The translations under genes were made by a program, and so were the position numbers. Positions 10,233 to 63,693 of a stretch of DNA of 64,000 nucleotides are shown piece by piece; position 1 is the first letter of the stretch; each line of letters starts with the position of its first letter. Origin of the DNA: Bryobacterales bacterium. Lineage in GTDB: Bacteria; Acidobacteriota; Terriglobia; Bryobacterales; UBA6623. Below the pieces are notes generated by a model. It was not told the DNA's origin and made no database searches. It worked only from the letters and a program-made list of their open reading frames with translations. The DNA lies in NCBI GenBank assembly GCA_965204095.1, contig OZ241991.1, positions 2,640,290 through 2,704,289 on the forward strand. Direction: 5' to 3'.

Positions 10233-10411
10233 CCTGCATGTCTCGCCACGAGGTGAGGTGAAGTGCGTGAGAGGGCCGCGTCACGACGAGGCGCTAGCCG
10301 CTTGGCGCGCGCAGGCGTACTTGAACAGTACATCGAGCACGGCAAGCAAGCGCAACGAAGTCATGGCGGTCGTATCGCGTGCTTCGGCCGTCAGATGGTG
10401 AGAAATGCAGG
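10233..10411 (+). repeat. Hairpin repeat family, copy 1 (full core, 179 bp)
   Basis: Left end cctgcatgtctcgccac, right end ggtgagaaatgcagg, central GC palindrome and GTACTTGAACAGTAC. Starts 5 nt after the 7814..10228 stop. Confidence 0.9.
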
Positions 10412-15597: not shown

Positions 15598-16971
15598 ATG
15601 ATCGTAATGAAATTCGGCGGCAGCTCGATCGAGAGCGCCGACGCCGTACAGCGCGTAACCGGCATCATCGCCGGACGTGCCCAACGCCCGCTTCTCGTCG
15701 TCGTTTCCGCCATGGGAAAGACGACGGACCGCCTGATTGAAATCGGCCATACCGCTGCTACCGGAGACATCGACGGCGCGCTTCGAAAGCTCAACAGCCT
15801 GCGTGAGTTTCACGCCGTTGAAACGGCAAGCGTCGTCGCGCCACAGGCCGAAGTAGCCCTCGAAAAACACTTTGATGACCACTTTCATGAACTGGCGGAG
15901 TTGCTGCGCGGCCTCTCGATCTTGGGCGAGTTGAGCGCCCGGTCGCTGGATGTCCTGTCGAGCTACGGCGAGCGCCTTTCCAGCAGGGTCATCACCGAAG
16001 CGCTGCGAGCGCGGGGCCTTGCGGCCGAACATATCGACGCGCGCGAGGTCATTGTCACCGACGACCGCTTCGGCGAAGCCTCGCCGCTCGTCGATGAAAC
16101 GAATGCGCGGCTCGCCCGGCTGGTCCGGCCGCTCATCGACGCTGGCAAGATCCCTGTTATGGGAGGCTTCATCGCCTCCACGATGAAAGGCATCACTTCG
16201 ACACTCGGGCGCGGCGGCTCGGATTTCACGGCCTCGCTCGTCGGCGCCGGCCTGACGGCGGAGGAGATTGAAATTTGGACCGACGTCGACGGCGTTCTCA
16301 CCGCCGACCCTTCCTTGATCTCGCCGGCCCGTCGGATCCGCGTAATGTCTTTCGCCGAGGCCGCGGAACTCGCCTATTTCGGGGCGCGGGTGCTGCACCC
16401 GAGCACGATGCTCCCCGCCGTTAGGAACAACATCCCGATTCGCGTACTCAACTCCCGTAAACCTGAAGTTGAAGGCACTTTGATCGTGGCCGAGCATGCG
16501 GACGGTCAATCGATCATCAAGTCCATCGCTTACCAGCAAGGCATCACCGTCGTCGAGGTGCGCTCGACCCGGATGCTGATGGCTCACGGCTTCCTCGCGA
16601 AGATCTTCGAAGTGTTCGACCGCTACGAGACCTCCGTCGACATGGTCACTACGTCCGAGGTCAGCGTTTCGCTGACGATCGACGACACGACTCACCTCCC
16701 CGCCATGGTTCAGGAGTTGCAGCAGTTCGCCGAGGTGACCCCCGTATCCGATCAGGGCATCGTCTGCGTCGTGGGCGACAACATCGGTTATACTCCGGGA
16801 ATTGCGGCACGGATCTTCCAGGCTCTCGAGCAGATCAACATTCGGATGATCTCGCAGGGCGCGTCGCGGCTGAACGTGAGTTTGGTCGTTGATGAGAAGG
16901 ATCTCCGGAGGACCGTGGAGGCGCTGCACGCGACGTTCTTCTCGCAAGTCAACGAGAAAGTCTTCGCCTAG
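15598..16971 (+). CDS. lysC: Aspartate kinase
   Basis: MIVMKFGGSSI..., SAMGKTTD and a C-terminal ACT-like region. Confidence 0.95.
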   Translation: MIVMKFGGSSIESADAVQRVTGIIAGRAQRPLLVVVSAMGKTTDRLIEIGHTAATGDIDGALRKLNSLREFHAVETASVVAPQAEVALEKHFDDHFHELAELLRGLSILGELSARSLDVLSSYGERLSSRVITEALRARGLAAEHIDAREVIVTDDRFGEASPLVDETNARLARLVRPLIDAGKIPVMGGFIASTMKGITSTLGRGGSDFTASLVGAGLTAEEIEIWTDVDGVLTADPSLISPARRIRVMSFAEAAELAYFGARVLHPSTMLPAVRNNIPIRVLNSRKPEVEGTLIVAEHADGQSIIKSIAYQQGITVVEVRSTRMLMAHGFLAKIFEVFDRYETSVDMVTTSEVSVSLTIDDTTHLPAMVQELQQFAEVTPVSDQGIVCVVGDNIGYTPGIAARIFQALEQINIRMISQGASRLNVSLVVDEKDLRRTVEALHATFFSQVNEKVFA

Positions 16972-17161
16972 CAGCCCATGTTGAAACCCCGCGTAGCACC
17001 GAGAGCGGCGAGGTGCCTGGCTGACAAGGCGCGACGAGGGAGTATATTGGACATATTCGACCGAGGAGCAACGCAGTTCAGCCGGGATGCATCGCCGCTT
17101 GAATGCAGCGGGGCTTTTGACATGGGCTGCTTGTACGCCTGGAGAGCCGAGCAGGCCTCTC

Positions 17162-17902
17162 ATGGACATGCCCGCTGAAGCCACATCCCGGCGCCTCGCC
17201 CTTGTCGGCTACGGCAAGATGGGCCGCATGGTCGAGAGTCTCGCTCCCGAGTTCGGCTTCGAAGTCAGCCTCAAGCTCGACGAGTTCAACAACGTCGGCG
17301 GCGAGGGCATCACCGCTGAGAGCTTCGAAGGCATCGATGTCGCGATTGACTTCTCGATTCCACCGGTTGTCGCCGACAACACCGAGAAAATCTCCGCTTT
17401 GGGTGTCAATGTGGTGATTGGGACCACGGGTTGGCTCGACCAGATCGCTCGCGTCCGCAGCGCGGTGGAGCGTGCTAACATCGGCCTTGTTTACGGCGCG
17501 AATTTCTCGGTCGGCGTGCAGGTTTTTTACCGTGTCGCGGAGGCGGCGGCGACCTTGCTGGTTACGGAAAACGACTACGATGCGTGGGCGTACGAGATCC
17601 ATCACAAGATGAAGAAAGACGCTCCATCCGGTACGTTGTTGCGGCTTGTCGAGAAGATGCAGGAAGCAGGCTACGCACGCCGGATCGATCAGGCCAGCAA
17701 CCGCGCTGGCGCAGTACCGGGAAGCCATCAGATCGGTTTCGACTCCGAGGCCGATACCATCCAGCTCATCCACACCGCGCGGAGCCGAGTCGGCTTCGCC
17801 CGCGGTGCGCTGCGCGCCGCCCGCTGGATCATCGGGCGCAAGGGGCTGTACGAGTTCTCAACGGTCTGGGACCGCATGGAGGCCGCGCCCTCGGCAAGCT
17901 GA
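17162..17902 (+). CDS. dapB: 4-hydroxy-tetrahydrodipicolinate reductase
   Basis: ORF 17087..17902 trimmed to the Met at 17162. Shows LALVGYGKMGRMV and EIHHKMKKDAPSGT. Confidence 0.9.
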   Translation: MDMPAEATSRRLALVGYGKMGRMVESLAPEFGFEVSLKLDEFNNVGGEGITAESFEGIDVAIDFSIPPVVADNTEKISALGVNVVIGTTGWLDQIARVRSAVERANIGLVYGANFSVGVQVFYRVAEAAATLLVTENDYDAWAYEIHHKMKKDAPSGTLLRLVEKMQEAGYARRIDQASNRAGAVPGSHQIGFDSEADTIQLIHTARSRVGFARGALRAARWIIGRKGLYEFSTVWDRMEAAPSAS

Positions 17903-17921
17903 ACCGCCTCGGGAGGTGATC

Positions 17922-18818
17922 ATGTTCACTGGTTGCGGCACCGCACTCGTCACGCCCTTTCGGTCGGACGGCTCTCTCGACGAAGAAGCATTCCGCGCGC
18001 TCGTCCGCTGGCAGTTGGAAAGCTGCATACACTTCCTCGTTCCCTGCGGCACCACGGGCGAGAACCCGACTCTCACAAAGCAGGAACACCGCCGTGTCGT
18101 CGAGATGACGCTCGAGGAAGCCAAAGGCAAGGTTCCGATTCTCGCCGGCTGTGGAGGCTACAACACCGCCGAAGTCGCTGCGCTGGCGAGTGAACTCGAG
18201 AGCATGGAAGTCGATGGACTGCTCTCCGTCACTCCCTACTACAACAAGCCCACGCCGGAAGGCCTTTATGAACACTTCCTGGCCGTCTCGAAGGCGAGCC
18301 GGTTGCCGATCGTCGTCTACAACGTTCCCAGCCGCACCGGCTCCAACGTGAAAGCGCAGACCCTGGCTCGGCTGGCCTCGATCGATAACGTCGTTGGCGT
18401 CAAGGAGGCGTCGGGAGATATCGGACAGATGGCGGAGATCTTTCAGCTCGTCCCGAAATCCTTCTCCGTTCTCTCGGGAGATGACTCCGTGACGCTCGCC
18501 CTGATGGCTCTTGGCGGCGCCGGGGTGATCTCCGTCGCCTCGAATGAGATTCCGGCTGCGTTGTCCCAACTCTGCGAAGCCTGTGCGAATGGTGATTTCG
18601 ACAAAGCCCGGGAAATCCATCGCCGCTGCCATGCGCTGATGGAGGTCAATTTCATCGAGACCAGCCCCGGGCCGGTGAAGTGGGCGCTTTCGGTGATGGG
18701 GCGCATACAGCCCAACTATCGCCTCCCGATCGTGCCGCCAACCAACGAAAGCAAGGCGGAAATCGAAAGAGTCCTGGCGGGGCTCGGCTTGACTCGAATG
18801 TTGGCTTCGGCGGATTAA
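17922..18818 (+). CDS. dapA: 4-hydroxy-tetrahydrodipicolinate synthase
   Basis: Internal start at 17922 (GGGAGG upstream) within ORF 17646..18818. Shows CGTTGE, YNVPSRTG and VGVKEASGD. Confidence 0.95.
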   Translation: MFTGCGTALVTPFRSDGSLDEEAFRALVRWQLESCIHFLVPCGTTGENPTLTKQEHRRVVEMTLEEAKGKVPILAGCGGYNTAEVAALASELESMEVDGLLSVTPYYNKPTPEGLYEHFLAVSKASRLPIVVYNVPSRTGSNVKAQTLARLASIDNVVGVKEASGDIGQMAEIFQLVPKSFSVLSGDDSVTLALMALGGAGVISVASNEIPAALSQLCEACANGDFDKAREIHRRCHALMEVNFIETSPGPVKWALSVMGRIQPNYRLPIVPPTNESKAEIERVLAGLGLTRMLASAD

Positions 18819-19724: not shown

Positions 19725-19889
19725 CCAGAGACCTCCCAGGGTTGCAGGTGCGCGGCATGTTATGCCGGCGGGGGTAAAGTCACCATACGATGACCATGGC
19801 CCTTGGCGCTTCCACGACCCTAAGTCCCGAGGGCAAATCAATGCACACCGTTGTATGATGGACCTTTTTTTCGCACAGCCAAAGACCCG

Positions 19890-21248
19890 ATGCACCCATT
19901 CTTGATTCTCCTCATCGCCGTCGCCGCGGTATTCGTGCTGATCATCCGACTCCGGGTGAACGCCTTTGTTGCGCTCATCTCGTCGGCAATCCTGATCGGC
20001 CTCCTCTCACCCGACATCGCTGTCAACGAGGTAGTCCCGGCCGTCGGTGAGCGCTTCGGGGATGTTGTCGGCCGCATCGGCATCGCGATCGCCATGGCCG
20101 CCATCGTCGGCCAGTGCCTGATGGAAAGCGGCGCGGCCGACCGCATCACCCGCCGCTTTGTTGCCTGGCTGGGCGAGGCCCGTTCCTCGCTGTCGCTGGT
20201 CGCGAGCGGCTACGTGCTTTCGGTGCCCGTGTTCTCGGATACCGTCTTCTATCTCCTGGTCCCCTTGGCGCGGGCGATGAGCGTCCGCATGGGCGGACGC
20301 AACTACGTTCTCTATGTGATGGCGATCTCCGCCGGCGGATCGGCCACGCACGTCTTCGTCCCGCCTACGCCGGGACCACTCGTAATGGCATCCACCCTCA
20401 GTGTCGATGTCGGCATCGTCATTCTCGTAGGTCTGTGCGTCGCGCTGCCCGCGTCGCTGTGCGGCTGGCTCTACTCGATATGGATCGACCGCAAGCTCGA
20501 CATCCCGATTCGCGAAGCGCCCGGGCTTTCCCTCGACGAGCTCGGCAGGATCGCGACGCGGCCCGAGGAAGAGTTGCCCGGTTTCTGGGCGTCGATGTCA
20601 CCGATCCTGCTGCCGGTCGTGTTGATTACCTCCAATACGGTGGCGAACACCTTCTACGAGGGAACCGGCCTCGCCCGCCTGACCGCTTTCCTCGGGAACC
20701 CGAGTTTCGCTTTGCTGGCCGGCGCGGTCGTTTCGCTGTGGCTCCTGGCTCGTCAGAACCGTCTGTCGCTCAAGCAGTTGGCCGTCCCCGTCGAGGAGGC
20801 CATCAAGAGCGCCGGCGTTATCATCCTGATCACCGCGGGAGGCGGGGCCTTCGGCGGAATGCTCGTCCTTGCGGGCGTCGGCGACATGCTCGGCGAGTCG
20901 GCGAGCGAGTTGGGCATGTCGCTGATGCTGCTCGGTTTCCTGCTCGCCATGCTCGTCAAGATCGCCCAAGGTTCCGGCACCGTCGCGATGATCACGGCTT
21001 CCGCCATCATGGCCCCGCTGCTCGCGTCAGCAGACCTGACCTACCACCCGGTCTATGTTCTGATGTCCATCGGCAGCGGCGCTCTCATCGGCACCTGGAT
21101 GAACGACAGCGGCTTCTGGGTCTTCCGCACGATGACCGGACTGACCGAGATCGAAACGCTGCAAACCAAGACAGCTCTCCTTGTCGTGTTGGGAACCACC
21201 GGCTTCGCCGTCACCCTGCTGGGAAGTTGGCTCTTCCCACTCGTTTAG
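19890..21248 (+). CDS. GntP-family (gluconate-type) permease
   Basis: ORF 19851..21248. Polytopic membrane protein with GntP-like N-terminus (LILLIAVAAVFVLIIRLRVNAFVALI). Its TAG stop (21246-21248) abuts the repeat. Confidence 0.85.
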   Translation: MHPFLILLIAVAAVFVLIIRLRVNAFVALISSAILIGLLSPDIAVNEVVPAVGERFGDVVGRIGIAIAMAAIVGQCLMESGAADRITRRFVAWLGEARSSLSLVASGYVLSVPVFSDTVFYLLVPLARAMSVRMGGRNYVLYVMAISAGGSATHVFVPPTPGPLVMASTLSVDVGIVILVGLCVALPASLCGWLYSIWIDRKLDIPIREAPGLSLDELGRIATRPEEELPGFWASMSPILLPVVLITSNTVANTFYEGTGLARLTAFLGNPSFALLAGAVVSLWLLARQNRLSLKQLAVPVEEAIKSAGVIILITAGGGAFGGMLVLAGVGDMLGESASELGMSLMLLGFLLAMLVKIAQGSGTVAMITASAIMAPLLASADLTYHPVYVLMSIGSGALIGTWMNDSGFWVFRTMTGLTEIETLQTKTALLVVLGTTGFAVTLLGSWLFPLV

Positions 21249-21520
21249 CCTGCATTTCTCACCACGCGGCGAGGCGAAGTGGGTGAGAGGGCCGTCAGGA
21301 CTAGGCTCAAGCCGGGCGGAGGAAAAAGGCACGAGCCGCTTGGCGCGCGCAGGCGTTCTTGAACAGTACGTCGAGCACGGCAAGCAAGCGCAACGCAAGC
21401 CGCCCTTGAGCGACGGCCGTGCCGCCTGCCCAGGTTTTGGGGTCACGAAACACGAGACACGAAACACGAATCACGGCCTTTTTTCGCGTGCTTCGACCGT
21501 CGGGTGGTGAGACATGCAGG
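21249..21520 (+). repeat. Hairpin repeat family, copy 3 (long variant, 272 bp, with heptad tract 21444-21476)
   Basis: Same termini and core, plus extra GGCTCAAG..CTTGAGC and GGGCGG..CCGCCC complementary inserts and cacgaaa cacgaga cacgaaa cacgaat cacgg. Confidence 0.9.
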
Positions 21521-26351: not shown

Positions 26352-26599
26352 CCTGCTTTTCTCAACACGTGGCGAGACAAAGTGCGTGAGAGGGCCGTCA
26401 GGACGAGGCACGAGCCGCTTGGCGCGCGCAGGCGTACTTGAACAGTACGTCGAGCACGGCAAGCAAGCGCAACGCAAGCCGCCCTTGAGCGACGGCCGTG
26501 CCGCCTGCCCAGGTTTTGGGGTCACGAAACAGGAGACACGAAACACGAATCACGGCCTTTTTTCGCGTGCTTCGGCCGTCGGGTGGTGAGAAATGCAGG
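26352..26599 (+). repeat. Hairpin repeat family, copy 4 (long variant, 248 bp, heptads 26523-26555)
   Basis: Ends cctgcttttctcaacac / ggtggtgagaaatgcagg. Its right end abuts the TAA stop (26600-26602) of the minus-strand gene. Confidence 0.9.
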
Positions 26600-32866: not shown

Positions 32867-35233
32867 ATGAGCTTCGAGATTCGTAAGGTAGCCGTACTGG
32901 GCGCGGGCACGATGGGTTCTCGGATCGCGGCGCATCTTGCGAACGCCGGGGTCGAATGTCTGTTGCTCGATCTCCCCATCGAAGGCGCATCCACCGAAGC
33001 TGCCCGCAACGGCATCGCTGCGAAAGCGCACAAGGCCCTTCTCAAGTCACGCCCTCCGGCCCTCTTTACAGCAGACACGCTTCGGCGGATCGAGATCGGT
33101 AATTTCTCAGACCACCTTGCGCGTGTTTCGGAGGCGGATTGGATCATCGAGGCCGTTGTCGAGAACTTCGATGCCAAGCGCGAGATCCTCGCAAAGGTCG
33201 ATGCATTGCGTCGTCCCGGAGCTTTGATCACGACCAACACATCCGGCCTACCCGTCGGAAGGCTCGCTGAAGGCATGTCCGACGATTTCCGAAAGCACTG
33301 GCTGGGAACGCACTTCTTCAATCCGCCCCGCCACATGCGCCTGATGGAGCTGATTCCCACGCCTGAGAGCGATCCTCAAGTGGTCCACTTCGTCGCGGAC
33401 TTTTGCAGCCGGCGTCTCGGCAAAGTGGTTGTTTACGCCAACGACCGCCCCAACTTTATCGCCAACCGCATCTTGCTCTTTTCCGTCATGCACACGTTGC
33501 AGACCATGCGCTTGCATGGCTTGATGATCGAAGAGGTCGACGCCCTGACCGGGCCGCTTGTCGGACGGCCTCGCATGGCGACCTTTCGCCTGGCCGACTT
33601 CATCGGAATCGATGTCTGTCTCTTCGTTGCGGAAACTCTGCATCGCCTCGTTCCCGACGATGAAAAACACGAGGTCTACCGGCCGCCCGAATTTCTTCGC
33701 AAGATGGTCGAGCGGGGCTTCGTCGGAGACAAGGCCGGGCAAGGATTCTACAAGAAAGTCAAGGGCAAGGGCCGCCCCGAGTTGTTGGTTCTCGATCTCG
33801 AAACGTTGGACTATCGGCCGGCGAACAAACCAAGCTGGCCGGAATTGAAGCAAGCCGGGAAGGTCCGCGATCTTCCGGAGAGGATCAAGACGCTCATCGA
33901 CGCTCCCACGCCGGCCGGCCGCTTCCTATGGGAAACACTGAGTGAACTATTCCTATACACTGCGGCGCGTATTCCCGAGGTGACCGATGACATCCGGTCC
34001 ATCGACACGACCATGCGGACCGGGTTCAATTGGGAGAAGGGCATCTTCGAGATCTGGAACGGCCTCGGCGTCGAACAGACGGTTCAACGCATGAAGGACG
34101 ACGGCCGCGGGATTCCAGCGATCGTGGAAGCCGTGCTCGAGACGCCCGAAAAGTCCTTTTACCAGGAGAAGGGTCTTGAGGTCACCTACTTCGACTTCCC
34201 GGCAAAGCGCCACCAGCCGCTGGTCGATCCCGAGGGCTTCATCCGCCTTGCTTCTCTGCATAGGCGCAAGCGAATCTTGAAATCCAACGACAGCGCCAGC
34301 CTCGTGGACCTCGGTGACGGCATCGTCTGCTTGGAGTTTCATTCCAAAGCGAACTCACTCGATGAAGGCGTGCTCGGCCTGCTGCGGGAAACGATCGACG
34401 ACTGTGACGACAATCACCGGGCGCTGGTCATCGGAAATGATGGCGCTCATTTTTGCGTCGGAGCCAATCTCGCGATGCTTCTCGGATGGTGTCAATCGAA
34501 GAACTGGCAACGGATCGAGCAGGCTGTCGACGAAGTGCAAACGCTGTTCCGCGCGCTTCGCGGGCTACCCAAACCCACCGTCGCCGCCATCTTCGGGCAA
34601 ACGCTCGCCGGCGGTTGCGAACTCACGCTTCACTGCGACCGTGTGCAGGCCGCGGCCGAGACGTACATCGGACTGGTCGAGGTAGGCGCAGGTTTAATCC
34701 CCGCGGCCGGAGGCTGCACGGATTTGCTGCGCCGGCACACCGCCTCTCTTCAAGCGAAACACGATCTCACTCCTGCTACGCAAGCGGTCTTTGAACGGAT
34801 CGGCATGGCCAAAGTCTCCAACAGTGCCGAGGAAGCCCGCGAATGGAATCTCTTGCGGCCCGCCGACCTCATCACCATGAACCGAGACCACCTGCTATCC
34901 GATGCTTGGCAGACAGCTCGGCTTCTGGCCGCCGCTCCGTACCAACCGCCGCGGCGCTCCGAGATACTCGTCGGAGGACAAGGCACCCTGGCTGCCCTCA
35001 ACCTGGCGATCTATCTGCTGCACGAAGCCGGCTACATCAGTGGCTACGACCGTCACATCGGGTGCAAGTTGGCCACCGTTCTCGCCGGCGGGCCTCTTTC
35101 CCAGCCCGCTTGGGTTTCAGAGGACTATTTGCTCGGTCTGGAGAAAGAAGCCTTCCTCAGCCTCTGTGGGGAAGAGAGAACGCAGCAGCGCATAAGCCAC
35201 ATTCTGGAAACCGGCAAACCGCTCCGCAACTAG
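32867..35233 (+). CDS. Fused 3-hydroxyacyl-CoA dehydrogenase / enoyl-CoA hydratase (FadN/FadB-like)
   Basis: VAVLGAGTMGSRIAAHLANAG, HFFNPP and a C-terminal crotonase-like region (GGCELTLHCD). Its TAG stop (35231-35233) abuts the repeat. Confidence 0.9.
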   Translation: MSFEIRKVAVLGAGTMGSRIAAHLANAGVECLLLDLPIEGASTEAARNGIAAKAHKALLKSRPPALFTADTLRRIEIGNFSDHLARVSEADWIIEAVVENFDAKREILAKVDALRRPGALITTNTSGLPVGRLAEGMSDDFRKHWLGTHFFNPPRHMRLMELIPTPESDPQVVHFVADFCSRRLGKVVVYANDRPNFIANRILLFSVMHTLQTMRLHGLMIEEVDALTGPLVGRPRMATFRLADFIGIDVCLFVAETLHRLVPDDEKHEVYRPPEFLRKMVERGFVGDKAGQGFYKKVKGKGRPELLVLDLETLDYRPANKPSWPELKQAGKVRDLPERIKTLIDAPTPAGRFLWETLSELFLYTAARIPEVTDDIRSIDTTMRTGFNWEKGIFEIWNGLGVEQTVQRMKDDGRGIPAIVEAVLETPEKSFYQEKGLEVTYFDFPAKRHQPLVDPEGFIRLASLHRRKRILKSNDSASLVDLGDGIVCLEFHSKANSLDEGVLGLLRETIDDCDDNHRALVIGNDGAHFCVGANLAMLLGWCQSKNWQRIEQAVDEVQTLFRALRGLPKPTVAAIFGQTLAGGCELTLHCDRVQAAAETYIGLVEVGAGLIPAAGGCTDLLRRHTASLQAKHDLTPATQAVFERIGMAKVSNSAEEAREWNLLRPADLITMNRDHLLSDAWQTARLLAAAPYQPPRRSEILVGGQGTLAALNLAIYLLHEAGYISGYDRHIGCKLATVLAGGPLSQPAWVSEDYLLGLEKEAFLSLCGEERTQQRISHILETGKPLRN

Positions 35234-35420
35234 CCTGCATTTCTCACCACGTGGCGAGGCGAAGTGCGTGAGAGCGGCGTCAGGACGAGGCGCGAGCCGG
35301 GCGGAGGAAAAAGGCGCGCGCAGGTGTACTTGAACAGCACGTTGAGCACGGTAAGCAAGCGCAACGAAGTCCTGGCGGTCGTATCGCGTGCTTCGACCGT
35401 CGGGTGGTGAGACATGCAGG
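35234..35420 (+). repeat. Hairpin repeat family, copy 5 (187 bp; GGAGGAAAAAGG variant lacking half of the GC palindrome)
   Basis: Ends cctgcatttctcaccac / ggtggtgagacatgcagg. This is the uninterrupted reference for the intron insertion site. Confidence 0.9.
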
Positions 35421-42887: not shown

Positions 42888-43064
42888 CCTGTATTTCTCA
42901 CCACGTGGCGAGGCGAAGTGCGTGAGAGGGCCGTCAGGACGAGGCGCGCGCCGCTTGGTGCGCGCAGGCGTACTTGAACAGTACGTTGAGCACGGCAAGC
43001 AAGCGCAACGAAGTCCTGGCGGTCGTATCGCGTGCTTCGACCGTCAGGTGGTGAGAAATGCAGG
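42888..43064 (+). repeat. Hairpin repeat family, copy 7 (177-bp core; used for the pairing analysis)
   Basis: Ends cctgtatttctcaccac / ggtggtgagaaatgcagg, flanked by TAG and CTA. Confidence 0.92.
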
Positions 43065-43130: not shown

Positions 43131-43164
43131 CCTGCATGTCTCGCCACCTGGAGAGACATGCAGG
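43131..43164. repeat. 34-bp mini-hairpin made only of the family termini
   Basis: cctgcatgtctcgccacctggagagacatgcagg has a 12-bp perfect stem identical to the family ends (G/C allele). Confidence 0.85.
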
Positions 43165-47477: not shown

Positions 47478-47653
47478 CCTGTATTTCTCACCACGTGGCG
47501 AGATGAAGTGCGTGAGAGGGCCGTCAGGACGAGGCGCGCGCCGCTTGGCGCGCGCAGGCGTACTTGACGGTACGTTGAGCACGGCAAGCCAGCGCAACGA
47601 AGTCCTGGCGGTCGTATCGCGTGCTTCAGCCGTCGGGTGGTGAGAAATGCAGG
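47478..47653 (+). repeat. Hairpin repeat family, copy 8 (176 bp)
   Basis: Fills the gap between the convergent trpE and murB genes. Its right end abuts the murB TAA stop (47654-47656). Confidence 0.92.
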
Positions 47654-48700: not shown

Positions 48701-48734
48701 GCCTGCATGTCTCGCCACGTAGTGAGACATGCAG
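48701..48734. repeat. 34-bp mini-hairpin made only of the family termini
   Basis: cctgcatgtctcgccacgtagtgagacatgcagg, lying between the divergent murB and DUF2461 gene starts. Confidence 0.85.
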
Positions 48735-48760
48735 GCTGACCCTTTCGACGAGGAGACGCC

Positions 48761-50642: not shown

Positions 50643-50715
50643 CCTGCATTTCTCACCACGCGGCGAGGCGAAGTGGGTGAGAGGGCCGTCAGGACTAGGC
50701 GCGAGCCGGGCGGAG
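50643..50715 (+). repeat. Hairpin repeat family, copy 9, left part (split by the intron)
   Basis: cctgcatttctcaccacgcggcgaggcgaagtgggtgagagggccgtcaggactaggcgcgagccgggcggag. Joined to 52593-52720 it recreates the copy-5 variant exactly at the junction. Confidence 0.9.
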
Positions 50716-52592
50716 ATCGGGATAGGGGGGAGCCTCGCGGCTCCACCCCTCCCACACCACCGTGCATACGGGTCCGTACACGGCGGTTCGACGGATTTAA
50801 GCGGCTGCACGGGCTTCAACAGAGACGAGGCCGAGGTGCGCGAAGAAGGCATTGGATAGAGCGATCGCGAGCGCGGGACTGTTGCTGATCCGCCACGGGC
50901 CGTGGGCACTGCCAGCGGTTTGGGCCGCCAGATCCTTGCCGATGCCATGGCGGCGCAACGCCGCAAAGCGGGTGCGCCCGCGCTTCCACTGCCGCCAGAC
51001 GAGGGCGCGAAGCCGCCGTCTGATCCACTGGTCGAGTCGATGCAATACCCAGGGGGTCTCGCAGAAGCCGAAGTAGCCCCGCCACCCGACGAGGTAGCGA
51101 GACAGTTCCGCAACGAGATGGGCGAGACTGACGCTCTTGGTGCACTGCGTCAGTTCCCGGACCCGCGCCTTGAACCGAGCGAGTGTCTGCGGCGCGATGC
51201 GCCGCTTGACCGCTGGTCCGGCTGTAAAGCTGAAGCCCAGCAAGGCCCGCGCCACTGGACGATCCACCGCGCTCTTGTCTGCGTTCACCGTCAGCTTCAG
51301 TCGCCGCGCAAGGAAGCGGGTCACGCTCACCATCACCCGCTCGCCCGCCCGCCGGGACCGCACGTAAATGTTGCAGTCGTCGGCATAGCGGACGAAGCGG
51401 TGACCGCGCTTCTCCAGTTCCTTGTCCAGCACGTCAAGCATCAGGTTCGACAGCAAGGGCGAGAGCGGTCCGCCTTGCGGCGTCCCCTTGGTAGTCGGGC
51501 CGACCAGCCCGCCCTCCAGCACACCCGCGCTCAGGAAGCCGCGGATCAGCTTGAGCAGGCGTTTGTCGGCCACCCGTCTGGCCACCAGTCCCATCAGGAT
51601 GTCGTGGTTGACCCGGTCGAAGAATTTCTCCAGATCGAGATCGACCACGATGCCGAAGCCCGAGCGGATGTGGTTCTGCGCGGACTGGATTGCCTGGTGG
51701 GCCGAGCGTCCGGGCCGAAACCCGTAGCTCGCATCCGAGAAGCTGGGGTCCCACTCCCCCTGCATCACCTGCATCACTGCTTGCTGGATGAAGCGGTCGA
51801 GTACCGTCGGCACTCCGAGCGGTCGAACCCCGCCCGACGCCTTCGGTATCTCCACCCGCCGTACCGGCTGCGGGGTGTAGCTGCCGTCGAGAAGTCGGGA
51901 CCTGATCTCGGTCCAGTGGTCCTTCAGGTGATCGCCCAGCTCATCGACCCTCATGCCGTCGATGCCGGGCGCCCCTTTGTTGCGCCGGACTCGCGCCAGC
52001 GCCTTCTTCAAATTGCCGGGCTCGACGACCGTCTCCATCGACGGTCCCTGCCCAGCCGCCGGGCGTTCGGGTCCGGCACGCGCCAGGCGGGCTTCGGTCC
52101 CTTGGGCTCCGGCGCTCCGGGCTTCACCCTTCGCCTCCGGCTCCAAGGCCAGTTCCAACTGGATATTCTGCCGCTTGGTCCGCATGAGCGTACCGTCCTA
52201 CTAACCCTGTCCGTCGTTCGGGCCTTCGCCGGCGTGCCGACTACTATGCCCTCTGCTGACTTCTGCGCCGCGATCACGGGCCTTGCGGACCCGCTCAGTC
52301 CGGGACTTCCGGACACGGCGCAGACCTCCCGAGATAAGATCGACCGCCTTCACCGCGCACCCGCCGGATCTACCACCCCGGCCCTTGATGGCTATGGACT
52401 TCGCGATCATTCGCTCGCTCGTCCGGCCGGGTAGGCCTCGTATCCGGTTCTTGTCCATCGGGTCGCGGCTTTGCTCCACGCTTCCTTCAGACCCCGCCTC
52501 GCGACGACGCCCTTGCGCTTCGCTAATCCTTCGCCGCCATCGGGCTGGATAAAGGACTTGCACCCCCAAGCTGTCGATCATGCTCGGCATAC
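50716..52592 (-). mobile_element. Group II intron (1877 bp), IIC-like, inserted in repeat copy 9
   Basis: Boundaries come from comparison with uninterrupted copy 5. The minus-strand intron starts GTATGCC and ends ...CCCGAT (AY). It has about 407 nt 5' of the ORF and 81 nt 3' of it, including a domain-V-like hairpin near 50757-50795. Confidence 0.85.
50797..52185 (-). CDS. Group II intron reverse transcriptase/maturase (no endonuclease domain)
   Basis: RT blocks (GAPGIDGM, RRVEIPKASGGVRPLGVPTVLDRFIQQA, YADDCNIYV) and X/maturase region (RYLVGWRGYFGF). The short C-terminus has no HNH motif. Confidence 0.95.
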   Translation of the reverse strand: MRTKRQNIQLELALEPEAKGEARSAGAQGTEARLARAGPERPAAGQGPSMETVVEPGNLKKALARVRRNKGAPGIDGMRVDELGDHLKDHWTEIRSRLLDGSYTPQPVRRVEIPKASGGVRPLGVPTVLDRFIQQAVMQVMQGEWDPSFSDASYGFRPGRSAHQAIQSAQNHIRSGFGIVVDLDLEKFFDRVNHDILMGLVARRVADKRLLKLIRGFLSAGVLEGGLVGPTTKGTPQGGPLSPLLSNLMLDVLDKELEKRGHRFVRYADDCNIYVRSRRAGERVMVSVTRFLARRLKLTVNADKSAVDRPVARALLGFSFTAGPAVKRRIAPQTLARFKARVRELTQCTKSVSLAHLVAELSRYLVGWRGYFGFCETPWVLHRLDQWIRRRLRALVWRQWKRGRTRFAALRRHGIGKDLAAQTAGSAHGPWRISNSPALAIALSNAFFAHLGLVSVEARAAA

Positions 52593-52621
52593 GAAAAAGG
52601 CGCGCGCCGCTTGGCGCGCGC
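52593..52621 (-). terminator. Terminator-like GC hairpin plus U-run (minus strand) immediately 5' of the intron insertion point
   Basis: Minus strand reads GCGCGCGCC-AAGC-GGCGCGCGC-CTTTTTC, then the intron GTATG. Confidence 0.5.
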
Positions 52622-52720
52622 AGGCGTACTTGAACAGTACGTTGAGCACGACAAGCAATCACAACGAAGTCCTGGCGGCCATATGGCGTGCTTCAGCCGT
52701 CGGGTGGTGAGAAATGCAGG
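52593..52720 (+). repeat. Hairpin repeat family, copy 9, right part
   Basis: gaaaaaggcgcgcgccgcttggcgcgcgcaggcgtacttgaacagtac...ggtggtgagaaatgcagg. Its right end abuts the TAA stop (52721-52723). Confidence 0.9.
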
Positions 52721-53734
52721 TTAACTACCCGCCGGTGCGGGACTGTAACGGGGGGACAACAGTGAACCGTCGTCGATCGGAAGGCTCAACCGCACGAACC
52801 GCGGCGTGTTGGCGAAGGCGACCGTGACGTACTTGTAGAAAGAGCCATCCAAGGCGCGCGGCGCGGTTGGTAGATCCACGACTTTCTTCGTTCCATCCAG
52901 AAGAGAACTCAGCTCGTCGGCTCCCGGCAGCCCGGACGGAGCCTCGCCGGCGAGAGGCGGCCGCAGACTGCTGTAAACCGTATCGCCATCGATCGACACG
53001 ATGTGAATCTCGTCGATGGGACTGGAGTTCACAATGCGCAGTAGCCGGCTGTTGATTTCCTCCGTCGACCACCCGTCCTCCTCGGCGCCCACGACGAAGT
53101 ACTCCGCGAGCCTGGCCTGCACAACCATCTGCTTGCCGAGGATCTCCTCGAACACGACTCTGATCTCGTCCAGTTGGTCGGTAAAGGCGAAATCCAGCAG
53201 ATCCGGCTCGCCGAAGGCTGCCATCACCGCGGTCATGACCGGCGAGGTATAGGAGCCGCTCAGGAGATCGTGCTCCTCGAAGGCAAGCGCATTACCCACT
53301 TGCACGATCCGCTTGCGGTCGACGCCGTTGACCCCGACATACTTGTAGACTTCCTGATCGATCTCCCGCACCTGCGCCGATTGCGTGATGACGTGGTCGC
53401 TCTCGATGGGGGACGCAAGCAGGGCGTAGAACTTCGAGGCCTGCGGCTGCACAGCGGGATTGGGATTGAACCGGAAGGGCATCAGCGCGCCGGTTTCGTC
53501 CCGGACGTTGGTGAGATAGGCCACGCCCTGCTCGTCGGTGATCCAGAACTCGTCGAGCACCGTGGTCGAAGCGATGACTTCGAGGGTCTCGATCACTTGT
53601 GCGGCGTCATGCCCTCTCGCTTCGGCCACCGCCACAAGATGCGCGGCGATGCGTGCCTGGGCCGTCATCTGGCCGTCCAGCATCGCGTCAAGGGCGCGTG
53701 CGACCGTGGCTAGCGAGATTTTGGGCATTTCCAC
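52721..53734 (-). CDS. Hypothetical protein with an internal tandem duplication (two ~150-aa sensor-like halves)
   Basis: Residues ~20-75 (MTAQARIAAHLVAVAE...LDEFWITDEQGVAYL) parallel ~190-245 (MVVQARLAEYFVVGAE...IDEIHIVSIDGDTVY). No signal peptide or TM segment seen. Confidence 0.6.
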   Translation of the reverse strand: MEMPKISLATVARALDAMLDGQMTAQARIAAHLVAVAEARGHDAAQVIETLEVIASTTVLDEFWITDEQGVAYLTNVRDETGALMPFRFNPNPAVQPQASKFYALLASPIESDHVITQSAQVREIDQEVYKYVGVNGVDRKRIVQVGNALAFEEHDLLSGSYTSPVMTAVMAAFGEPDLLDFAFTDQLDEIRVVFEEILGKQMVVQARLAEYFVVGAEEDGWSTEEINSRLLRIVNSSPIDEIHIVSIDGDTVYSSLRPPLAGEAPSGLPGADELSSLLDGTKKVVDLPTAPRALDGSFYKYVTVAFANTPRFVRLSLPIDDGSLLSPRYSPAPAGS

Positions 53735-55948: not shown

Positions 55949-56190
55949 CCTGCTTTTCTCGCCACCTGGCCAGGCGAAGTGCGCGAGAGGACCGTCAGGA
56001 CGGGGCGCGAGCCGCTGGGCGCCGGCAACACGGCCTGTGCGGTTTTTCACAAAACACGAAACACGGCCTTTCATGCCTCGGGGTTTCGCATTTCCGGTTT
56101 TTGTCTTTGCATCACGAATCACGAGACACGAGACACGAATCACGGCCTTTGTATCGTGTGCTTCGGCCGCCGGATGGCGGGAAATGCCGG
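55949..56190 (+). repeat. Hairpin repeat family, copy 10 (divergent long variant, 242 bp, heptads 56048-56066 and 56113-56145)
   Basis: Ends cctgcttttctcgccac / atggcgggaaatgccgg, with an A-U to G-C compensatory change. Its right end abuts the TAG stop (56191-56193). Confidence 0.85.
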
Positions 56191-61725: not shown

Positions 61726-61902
61726 CCTGCTTTTCTCACCACATGGCGAGGCGAAGTGCGTGAGAGGGCCGTCAGGACGAAGCGCGAGCCGCTTGGCGCG
61801 CGCAGGCGTACTTGAACAGTACGTTGAGCACGGCAAGCAAGCGCAACGAAGTCCTGGCGGTCGTATCGTGTGCTTCGACCGTCGAGTGGTGAGAAATGCA
61901 GG
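61726..61902 (+). repeat. Hairpin repeat family, copy 11 (177 bp)
   Basis: Ends cctgcttttctcaccac / agtggtgagaaatgcagg, flanked by TAG and CTA. Confidence 0.92.
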
Positions 61903-63292: not shown

Positions 63293-63557
63293 CCTGCATG
63301 TCTCACTACGTAGCGAGGTGATTTGCCTGCATGCTGCGGGCAGTCGTGAGAAGACCGCCAGGACGAGACGCGAGCCGCCCGCGCCGGCAACACAGCCCTG
63401 AAGGGGTTTTTAGCGAATCACGAGTCACGAATCACGCCCTTTCACGCCTCCGGATTTCGCATTTCTGGTTGTTTTGTTTTTGCATCACGAGTCGAGTCAC
63501 GAAACACGAATCACGGCCTTTCCGCGTGCTCCAGCCGTCGGGTTGTGAGAAAGGCGG
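63293..63557 (+). repeat. Hairpin repeat family, copy 12 (divergent long variant with heptads 63412-63437 and 63486-63516)
   Basis: Left end cctgcatgtctcactac, right end gggttgtgagaaaggcgg, with internal GGCAACACAGCC and heptad modules as in copy 10. Confidence 0.8.
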
Positions 63558-63693
63558 ATTAAACCCGGAAATGCTTTCAGTTTCCCCGATTCCAAGGTCC
63601 TTGTCACACGAAACACTCCCCCCGTTCAGGATCATCTTGTGTTGGACAACTCTGGGGCAGGTGGAAAGCCCTTCGGTACTATACAATCCCATT

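Follow-up and report, generated by a model that had tools for sequence, protein, structure and literature searches.

A predicted group IIC intron behind a terminator-like hairpin in a palindromic repeat of an acidobacterial chromosome

In a 64,000-nt stretch of the chromosome of a Bryobacterales bacterium (contig OZ241991.1, hereafter the window), a reverse transcriptase (RT) gene lies within one copy of a short palindromic repeat. What kind of element carries this gene, and what directed it to this site? An initial annotation had read the insert as an endonuclease-less, IIC-like group II intron that homes to the repeat. We hold with high confidence that it is an intact class C (IIC) intron inserted directly downstream of a stem-loop and T-run, presumably by reverse splicing into single-stranded DNA.

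The insert spans 1877 nt on the minus strand, starting with GTATGCC at 52592 and ending with CCCGAT at 50716, in agreement with the initial annotation in both coordinates and sequence. Its 5′ boundary reads ..CCTGCGCGCGCC-AAGC-GGCGCGCGC-CTTTTTC / GTATGCCGAGC.. (52593/52592, where the slash marks the splice boundary), and its 3′ boundary reads ..CCCTATCCCGAT / CTCCGCCCGG.. (50716/50715). The same boundaries are found in ~70 aligned relatives, whose lengths range from 1870 to 1982 nt. Within the intron and its flanking exons we located the following parts, given in window coordinates, with exon-binding and intron-binding sites abbreviated EBS and IBS and intron domains I, IV, V and VI abbreviated DI, DIV, DV and DVI.

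50716-52592, minus strand: complete group IIC (class C) intron, 1877 nt, GUAUGCC to CCCGAU, placed by Rfam models RF02001, RF01998 and RF00029 and by the boundaries of relatives
52595-52593, minus strand: IBS1, UUC, the final 3 nt of CTTTTTC, partner of GAA in EBS1
52482-52486, minus strand: AGGAA of the IIC-specific DI bulge (UCUGAAGGAAG, intron nt 101-111), as defined in PMC1702495
52409-52412, minus strand: EBS1, GAAU at intron nt 181-184, terminal loop of a hairpin in DI
52370, minus strand: EBS3, G (intron nt 223, inside GGUAGAUCC), partner of IBS3
52334, minus strand: intron nt 259 (U), covariation partner of A3 in the 5′ GUAUG
50797-52185, minus strand: RT/maturase open reading frame (ORF) in DIV, 462 aa, with RT domains 0-7, X/thumb and D domain and no endonuclease (En) domain
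50756-50787, minus strand: DV, with CGC catalytic triad and short distal stem (ACCGCCGUGUACGGACCCGUAUGCACGGUGGU)
50718-50754, minus strand: DVI, with a basal helix of 4 bp, G at -3 and, 8 nt from the 3′ end, the bulged A of the branch point (50723)
50715, minus strand: IBS3, C, the first 3′-exon base

On the minus strand, Rfam models of group II domains D1-D4 match at 52508-52338 (RF02001, 134.7 bits) and 52296-52221 (RF01998, 54.1 bits), and the DV/DVI model RF00029 matches at 50788-50716 (44.1 bits). The non-coding portion amounts to 407 + 81 = 488 nt, in line with the short ribozyme of about 490 nt described initially. DV (ACCGCCGUGUACG-GACC-CGUAUGCACGGUGGU) lacks 4 nt that are present in the general Rfam DV model, and its CGC triad is invariant among 50 relatives. 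The consensus fold of DV and DVI shows compensatory changes at 12 of 27 pairs across related introns, so that the domains of which the initial annotation had asked whether they could be folded are found by both homology and covariation.

The RT gene is the only long ORF in the intron's orientation. Its product matches RVT_1 (2.5e-36) and GIIM (1e-19) in Pfam and TIGR04416 at 397 bits (cutoff 300), and a YADD active-site motif lies at 51376-51387 (minus strand). As initially annotated, the enzyme combines YADD and an X domain with the lack of an En domain: no HNH/En domain was found in the RT by Pfam, which returned RVT_1 and GIIM only, and the C-terminus coincides with the end of the GsI-IIC RT. 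The latter (6ar1) is also the best solved match (E=1e-144, 53.8% identity over a gap-free 409 aa). The E. rectale IIC RT 7uim matches at E=2e-103, and fragments of R. intestinalis and E. rectale RTs are among the best matches as well, compared with 1e-38 for LtrA (IIA/ML) and 1e-32 for a TeI4h-type IIB/CL RT. Judged by similarity to solved RT structures, the enzyme appears to group with the class C RTs. The frame is intact, running full length with its YADD motif and aligning without frameshift to relatives at 96% identity. The 49 codons before the conserved RT start M50 (METVVEP; window 52039-52185, minus strand) are in frame in relatives down to ~75% identity, which carry a similar N-terminal sequence (..QLELALEP..KGEARSAG..GTEAR..PERPAAG..). 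The 462-aa product may be the real one, or the N-terminal stretch may be constrained as DIVa RNA.

For a comparison beyond the window, we scanned representative genomes and obtained 80 related introns with RTs 61-88% identical to the window RT, mostly from soil metagenome-assembled genomes (MAGs) of several phyla; a protein search returned RTs up to 96% identical. Intron ends were mapped with nhmmer, and 71 mapped introns entered the hairpin analysis below, 69 loci the EBS1 analysis and 55 the EBS3 analysis. All three EBS1-IBS1 pairs are Watson-Crick at 57 of the 69 loci, against 11 expected with shuffled partners (maximum 20 in 2000 shuffles); 25 loci have four pairs, and many compensatory pair types occur. 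EBS3 (nt 223) pairs with the first 3′-exon base at 49 of 55 loci (G:C in 28, A:U in 21). The window flanks fit both pairings, with GAA of EBS1 facing UUC (3 bp) and the G of EBS3 facing C. By contrast, no EBS2-IBS2 pairing rises above chance: the longest complement between exon positions -13 to -4 and DI averages 5.1 nt, versus 5.35 nt when shuffled.

These features are the ones by which IIC introns are known (PMC1702495): small size, a DV in which CGC replaces AGC and the distal stem is 2 bp shorter, an AGGAA-containing bulge, an IBS1-EBS1 pairing of 3-4 bp, an EBS3 of the IIB type, and no EBS2. Every one of them is found in the window intron, as are the G at -3 and the 4-bp DVI basal helix of most IIC introns. 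RT similarity, ribozyme hallmarks and EBS/IBS covariation thus all agree with the IIC-like assignment of the initial annotation, and we conclude that the window intron is an intact member of class C.

In IIC introns a terminator stem-loop occupies the position of IBS2 (PMC1702495). The 5′ exon of the window intron carries such a structure, which coincides at 52621-52593 with the terminator-like motif initially described.

52600-52621, minus strand: 5′-exon stem-loop GCGCGCGCC-AAGC-GGCGCGCGC, 9 G-C pairs and a 4-nt loop, at the IBS2 position of IIA/IIB introns
52593-52599, minus strand: spacer and T-run CTTTTTC, ending in IBS1

This all-GC, 9-bp hairpin ends 7 nt before the splice site. It is not a chance feature: a terminator scan ranks this site first among terminator-like sites in 44-64 kb, and only 1.3% of window 45-mers reach its 45-nt minimum free energy (MFE) of -20.8. 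(Scanning loosely by MFE for "hairpin + TTC/C" gave 63 window candidates; this was too permissive at 62% GC and was replaced by the terminator scan.) The association extends to the family: the 45-nt 5′ exons of 71 relatives have a mean MFE of -19.0 versus -10.8 kcal/mol for controls (p=6e-24), with 4.4 versus 1.7 T in the final 9 nt. Insertion after a hairpin and U-run, as annotated, is thereby confirmed for the window and extended to the family. The intron lies downstream of a co-oriented, 337-aa minus-strand gene, behind the hairpin and T-run, an arrangement that matches "hiding behind terminators". The hairpin may terminate transcription. [quoted passage not shown]

The best RT match in the representative-genome scan is 88% identical, and three introns (L081, L083 and L084) are 90-94% identical in DNA to the window intron over all 1877 nt. 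Each of the three sits behind a different hairpin, in an unrelated context without the repeat, and with an IBS1 that matches its own EBS1. The hairpin rule holds at these other loci, with hairpins unrelated to one another.

Two further patterns emerged among the related introns. Some IIC introns stand head to tail (L017:1809-6833, L025:4319, L022:4319 and L082:1714-1775): the next intron, or a fragment, begins directly after the ..CCCGAU of the previous one, and L017 carries four 5′ ends in 7 kb. It is as if the DVI of a resident intron had served as the target hairpin. Separately, a sub-lineage of 23 introns that start with GUGUGCUG has a common target, yGCCGC-N4-5-GCGGC-TTCGTT/CAAGTCGG, in otherwise unrelated flanks from different phyla (L033, L038, L041, L044, L046, L047, L050-L055, L061-L063, L066, L068, L069, L073, L074, L076, L078). 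The stem in this target is only 5 bp, and targeting by the sub-lineage looks more sequence-specific than terminator targeting.

The 5′ GUAUG of the window intron, which the initial annotation had noted as a departure from GUGYG, is shared rather than unique. It is found again among the closest relatives, including two of the three 90-94% identical introns, and its third position covaries with nt 259, just inside the DI closing helix: across the family, nt3 and nt259 form G:C at 61 loci, A:U at 5, U:A at 1 and A.C at 5. The window intron has A3 (52590) with U259 (52334). Because GUAUG recurs in relatives and has a covarying partner, it is a lineage trait rather than a defect. No named tertiary contact in the literature consulted matched the nt3-nt259 pair, and we leave it unnamed, since PMC1702495 places epsilon′ near the AGGAA bulge.

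We then turn to the sequence that received the intron. When 50643-50715 and 52593-52720 are joined, the result is a repeat copy without interruption, to which the copy at 21246-21395 aligns across the junction at 93%, so the intron is nested in a repeat copy as initially annotated. The relevant parts are as follows.

50643-50715, plus strand: left part of the host repeat, with terminal inverted repeat (TIR), from CCTGCATTTCTCACCAC.. to ..GCCGGGCGGAG
52593-52720, plus strand: right part of the host repeat, from GAAAAAGGCGCGCGCC.. to ..GTGGTGAGAAATGCAGG
21322-21350, minus strand: unoccupied paralogous target GCGCGCGCC-AAGC-GGCTCGTGC-CTTTTTC/CTCC in a second copy of the host's repeat type

The repeat is ~177-200 bp long, has CCTGCATTTCTCACCAC TIRs and is bounded by YTAR-type direct repeats of 4 bp (TTAG/TTAG, CTAG/CTAG, TTAT/TTAT). 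About 8 further copies lie in the window, and at least 120 metagenomic contigs carry members of the family. It resembles a MITE in being short, non-coding and multicopy, in its TIRs and direct repeats, and in its presence or absence at an orthologous site. No parent transposase was identified for it, and a plasmid search with the repeat gave no match.

Two alleles of the repeat are common. On the minus strand, type A reads CCTGCGCGCGCC-AAGC-GGCKCGCGCC-TCGTCCTG, a hairpin without a T-run, and type B reads CCTGCGCGCGCC-TTTTTCCTCCGCCC-GGCTCGCGCC-TCGTCCTG, with the T-run (within GGAGGAAAAAGG) inside the hairpin loop. The host copy and the copy at 21249-21520 are three-arm hybrids of A and B (arm-AAGC-arm-TTTTTCCTCCGCCC-arm), and only this hybrid arrangement places a complete hairpin ahead of CTTTTTC. 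Unequal recombination is plausible because the arm GGCGCGCGCC is a palindrome in its own right, and the hybrid probably arose in this way from the two common alleles. The initial proposal that the antisense central palindrome of the repeat acts as the homing site is therefore borne out for the hybrid host copy but not for alleles A and B, which have no T-run or have it in the loop. The second hybrid, at 21322-21350, retains IBS1 and IBS3; a single mismatch and a single G.U pair occur in its stem.

Several other properties of the repeat deserve mention. Copies in the window (10233-10411, 21249-21520, 26352-26599, 35234-35420, 42888-43064, 47478-47653 and 61726-61902) have a density of about one per 6-8 kb, and the full copies are all co-oriented. 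Their ends often overlap stop codons, for example the TAA of the ORF at 52721-53734 and the TAG of those at 32867-35233 and 19851-21248; at the host copy, the 337-aa minus-strand ORF (52721-53734) has the flanking TTA (52721-52723) as its stop codon. Palindromes of 34 bp at 43131-43164 and 48702-48735 consist of two repeat TIRs back to back and nothing else; these could be minimal elements or what excision has left behind. Some copies are composites in which short tandem motifs of CACGAAACACGAGACACGAA type form an additional internal block (21396-21500 and 26475-26580), and this block is also found at 55966-56130 and 63310-63567, near the partial copies at ~56.0 kb and ~63.4 kb.

When did the intron arrive? 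Proteins 98-99% identical to the window TrpE occur on contigs of 5.4-6.0 Mb, the best named relatives being Bryobacterales and Solibacterales MAGs, which marks the host as an acidobacterium, and four syntenic loci (L205-L208), 92-97% identical to the window, span the orthologous interval. L208 has no repeat at this site. L207 and L205 have a type A repeat and no intron. L206 has an empty hybrid repeat with an imperfect stem and the tail CTTTTCC, and in the window the stem of the hybrid repeat is perfect, the tail is CTTTTTC, and the intron is present. As these sister sites show (no repeat, plain repeat, empty hybrid), the repeat preceded the intron, which is a recent, strain-specific insertion. 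The empty sites in L206, L207 and L208, together with the empty paralog at 21322-21350, show that the insertion into a pre-existing repeat was precise.

The interval in L205 also contains an IS110-family element (16420-18095, with a 471-aa DEDD transposase) exactly at the left boundary of the repeat (window 50640), with CTAG on both sides; for this reason we rejected it as an occupant of the intron's insertion point. The locus holds another IS110 copy, at the position that the 34-bp TIR-TIR palindrome (48702-48735) occupies in the window. Repeat ends may be IS110 targets.

How would an intron reach such a site? The ribonucleoprotein (RNP) of IIC introns is known to use a stem-loop with a very short IBS1 and IBS3, reverse splicing and priming by replication (PMC4424553, PMC7306698, PMC1702495), and the mobility of the window intron can be proposed by analogy. 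A rare three-arm recombinant of the two common repeat alleles would have brought CTTTTTC behind a perfect GC hairpin of 9 bp, mimicking an intrinsic terminator. The intron RNP would then recognise the DNA hairpin structure together with 3 bp of EBS1-IBS1 and 1 bp of EBS3-IBS3, and the intron would reverse-splice into single-stranded DNA after the stem-loop and T-run. Synthesis of cDNA by the RT would be primed by the host replication machinery, on which we take it to rely because it lacks an endonuclease. Present-day splicing and mobility are likewise predicted from the intact intron sequence.

A number of observations weigh against this account. The window contains a single copy of the intron, and its EBS1-IBS1 pairing is just 3 bp because the fourth position is U-U. 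GC skew of the plus strand is negative throughout the window (-0.01 to -0.08), yet more coding sequence lies on that strand, and the two cues to replication orientation disagree; this skew makes the intron sense strand G-rich. The hybrid at 21322-21350, with IBS1 and IBS3 intact, and the L206 ortholog are both empty, which suggests that the site is not efficiently targeted, although the stem is imperfect in both empty hybrids and IBS1 is also mismatched in L206. Could the repeat family instead be a dedicated, recurrent homing site through whose copies the intron spreads? The intron does lie in a repeat copy, and the copy at 21322-21350 offers the same hairpin and CTTTTTC/C. The intron is, however, absent from all other window copies (about 8) and from ~150 metagenomic copies (731 kb), 14 of which are type B with the T-run motif GGAGGAAAAAGG; the hybrid-specific pattern has zero matches in the metagenome collection; the L206 hybrid is empty; and the nearest intron relatives stand behind unrelated hairpins at loci without the repeat. 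We regard a dedicated site as very improbable, and since no other window or metagenomic copy is occupied, the repeat is an incidental rather than a recurrent target.

Two other explanations concern the intron itself. Classes D, E and F also lack En (PMC4424553), and such introns often reside in mobile elements, so an RmInt1-like, IIB-type intron homing through IBS1 and IBS2 to a sequence of 20-35 bp might be envisaged. Given an RT far nearer to IIC (1e-144) than to IIA or IIB enzymes (1e-38, 1e-32), a ribozyme of ~490 nt, CGC rather than AGC in DV, the AGGAA bulge, the lack of EBS2-like complementarity, and a target sequence common to relatives of at most 3-4 nt, we find this scarcely credible. 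A dead, immobile relic whose flanks preserve an ancient insertion would be compatible with the single copy seen and with the rare transcription of IIC introns behind terminators (PMC7306698), and we consider it unlikely, if less so than the former two. The ORF is full length, with YADD and no frameshifts versus the 96% relatives; all catalytic RNA motifs are preserved, as are the two exon pairings; and the insertion is recent, because the orthologous site is free of the intron in sister genomes that are 92-97% identical. We therefore retain the reading of an intact class C intron that reverse-spliced behind a hairpin and T-run.

This locus provides a clean natural example of structure-driven target choice by a IIC intron, in which a chance hairpin and T-run in a repeat suffices and repeat alleles without the hairpin-then-T-run geometry are ignored. 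The orthologous series and the empty paralog are natural empty-site controls and ready substrates for a mobility assay, and the comparison of ~70 introns provides covariation support for EBS1, EBS3 and the partner of intron position 3 in a soil and sediment lineage. We would also raise, as a speculation that we think is probably wrong, that allele recombination in abundant palindromic repeats makes terminator mimics de novo, and that these could be the main landing pads from which IIC introns become established and spread in GC-rich genomes with few canonical intrinsic terminators. If this were true, the window would show the first step, and its sister genomes would keep every intermediate state.

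Finally, we compared the window intron with known systems. It most resembles the terminator-targeting IIC introns B.h.I1 (Bacillus halodurans), GsI-IIC (Geobacillus stearothermophilus), E.r. (Eubacterium rectale) and O.i.I1, with which it shares the En-less RT (RT, X and D domains), the compact ribozyme with CGC triad, short DV and AGGAA bulge, the 3-4-bp EBS1-IBS1 and the EBS3-IBS3 pairings without EBS2, and insertion a few nucleotides past a GC-rich stem-loop and T's in the orientation of the upstream gene. Unlike these introns, it takes its hairpin and T-run from a rare recombinant repeat rather than a native gene terminator, begins with GUAUG instead of GUGYG, with nt 259 covarying, resides in an acidobacterium, and encodes an RT with a conserved 49-aa N-terminal extension. 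Besides terminators, IIC introns are known at attC sites and "other inverted repeats". The IIC-attC introns (for example S.ma.I2; PMC4424553) are a precedent for a non-terminator, imperfect inverted repeat borne by a mobile element as structural target; in contrast to them, the window intron has no integron or attC context, its target is terminator-like with a T-run, and its association with the repeat is a single event, whereas the attC association is recurrent. In Pseudomonas putida KT2440 (PMC1525189), a group II intron is found by repetitive extragenic palindromic (REP) elements, likewise small extragenic palindromic repeats, in 2 of 9 copies; repeat family, organism and intron lineage differ from ours, and the association was tabulated there, not dissected. 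The intron treated in PMC12584367 is of IIB1 type and has no bearing on the window intron. Together, these comparisons place the window case as a typical class C intron at a site that is unusual but not unprecedented. It is an ordinary case that involves no new mechanism, because insertion after a terminator-like hairpin and T-run is textbook IIC behaviour.

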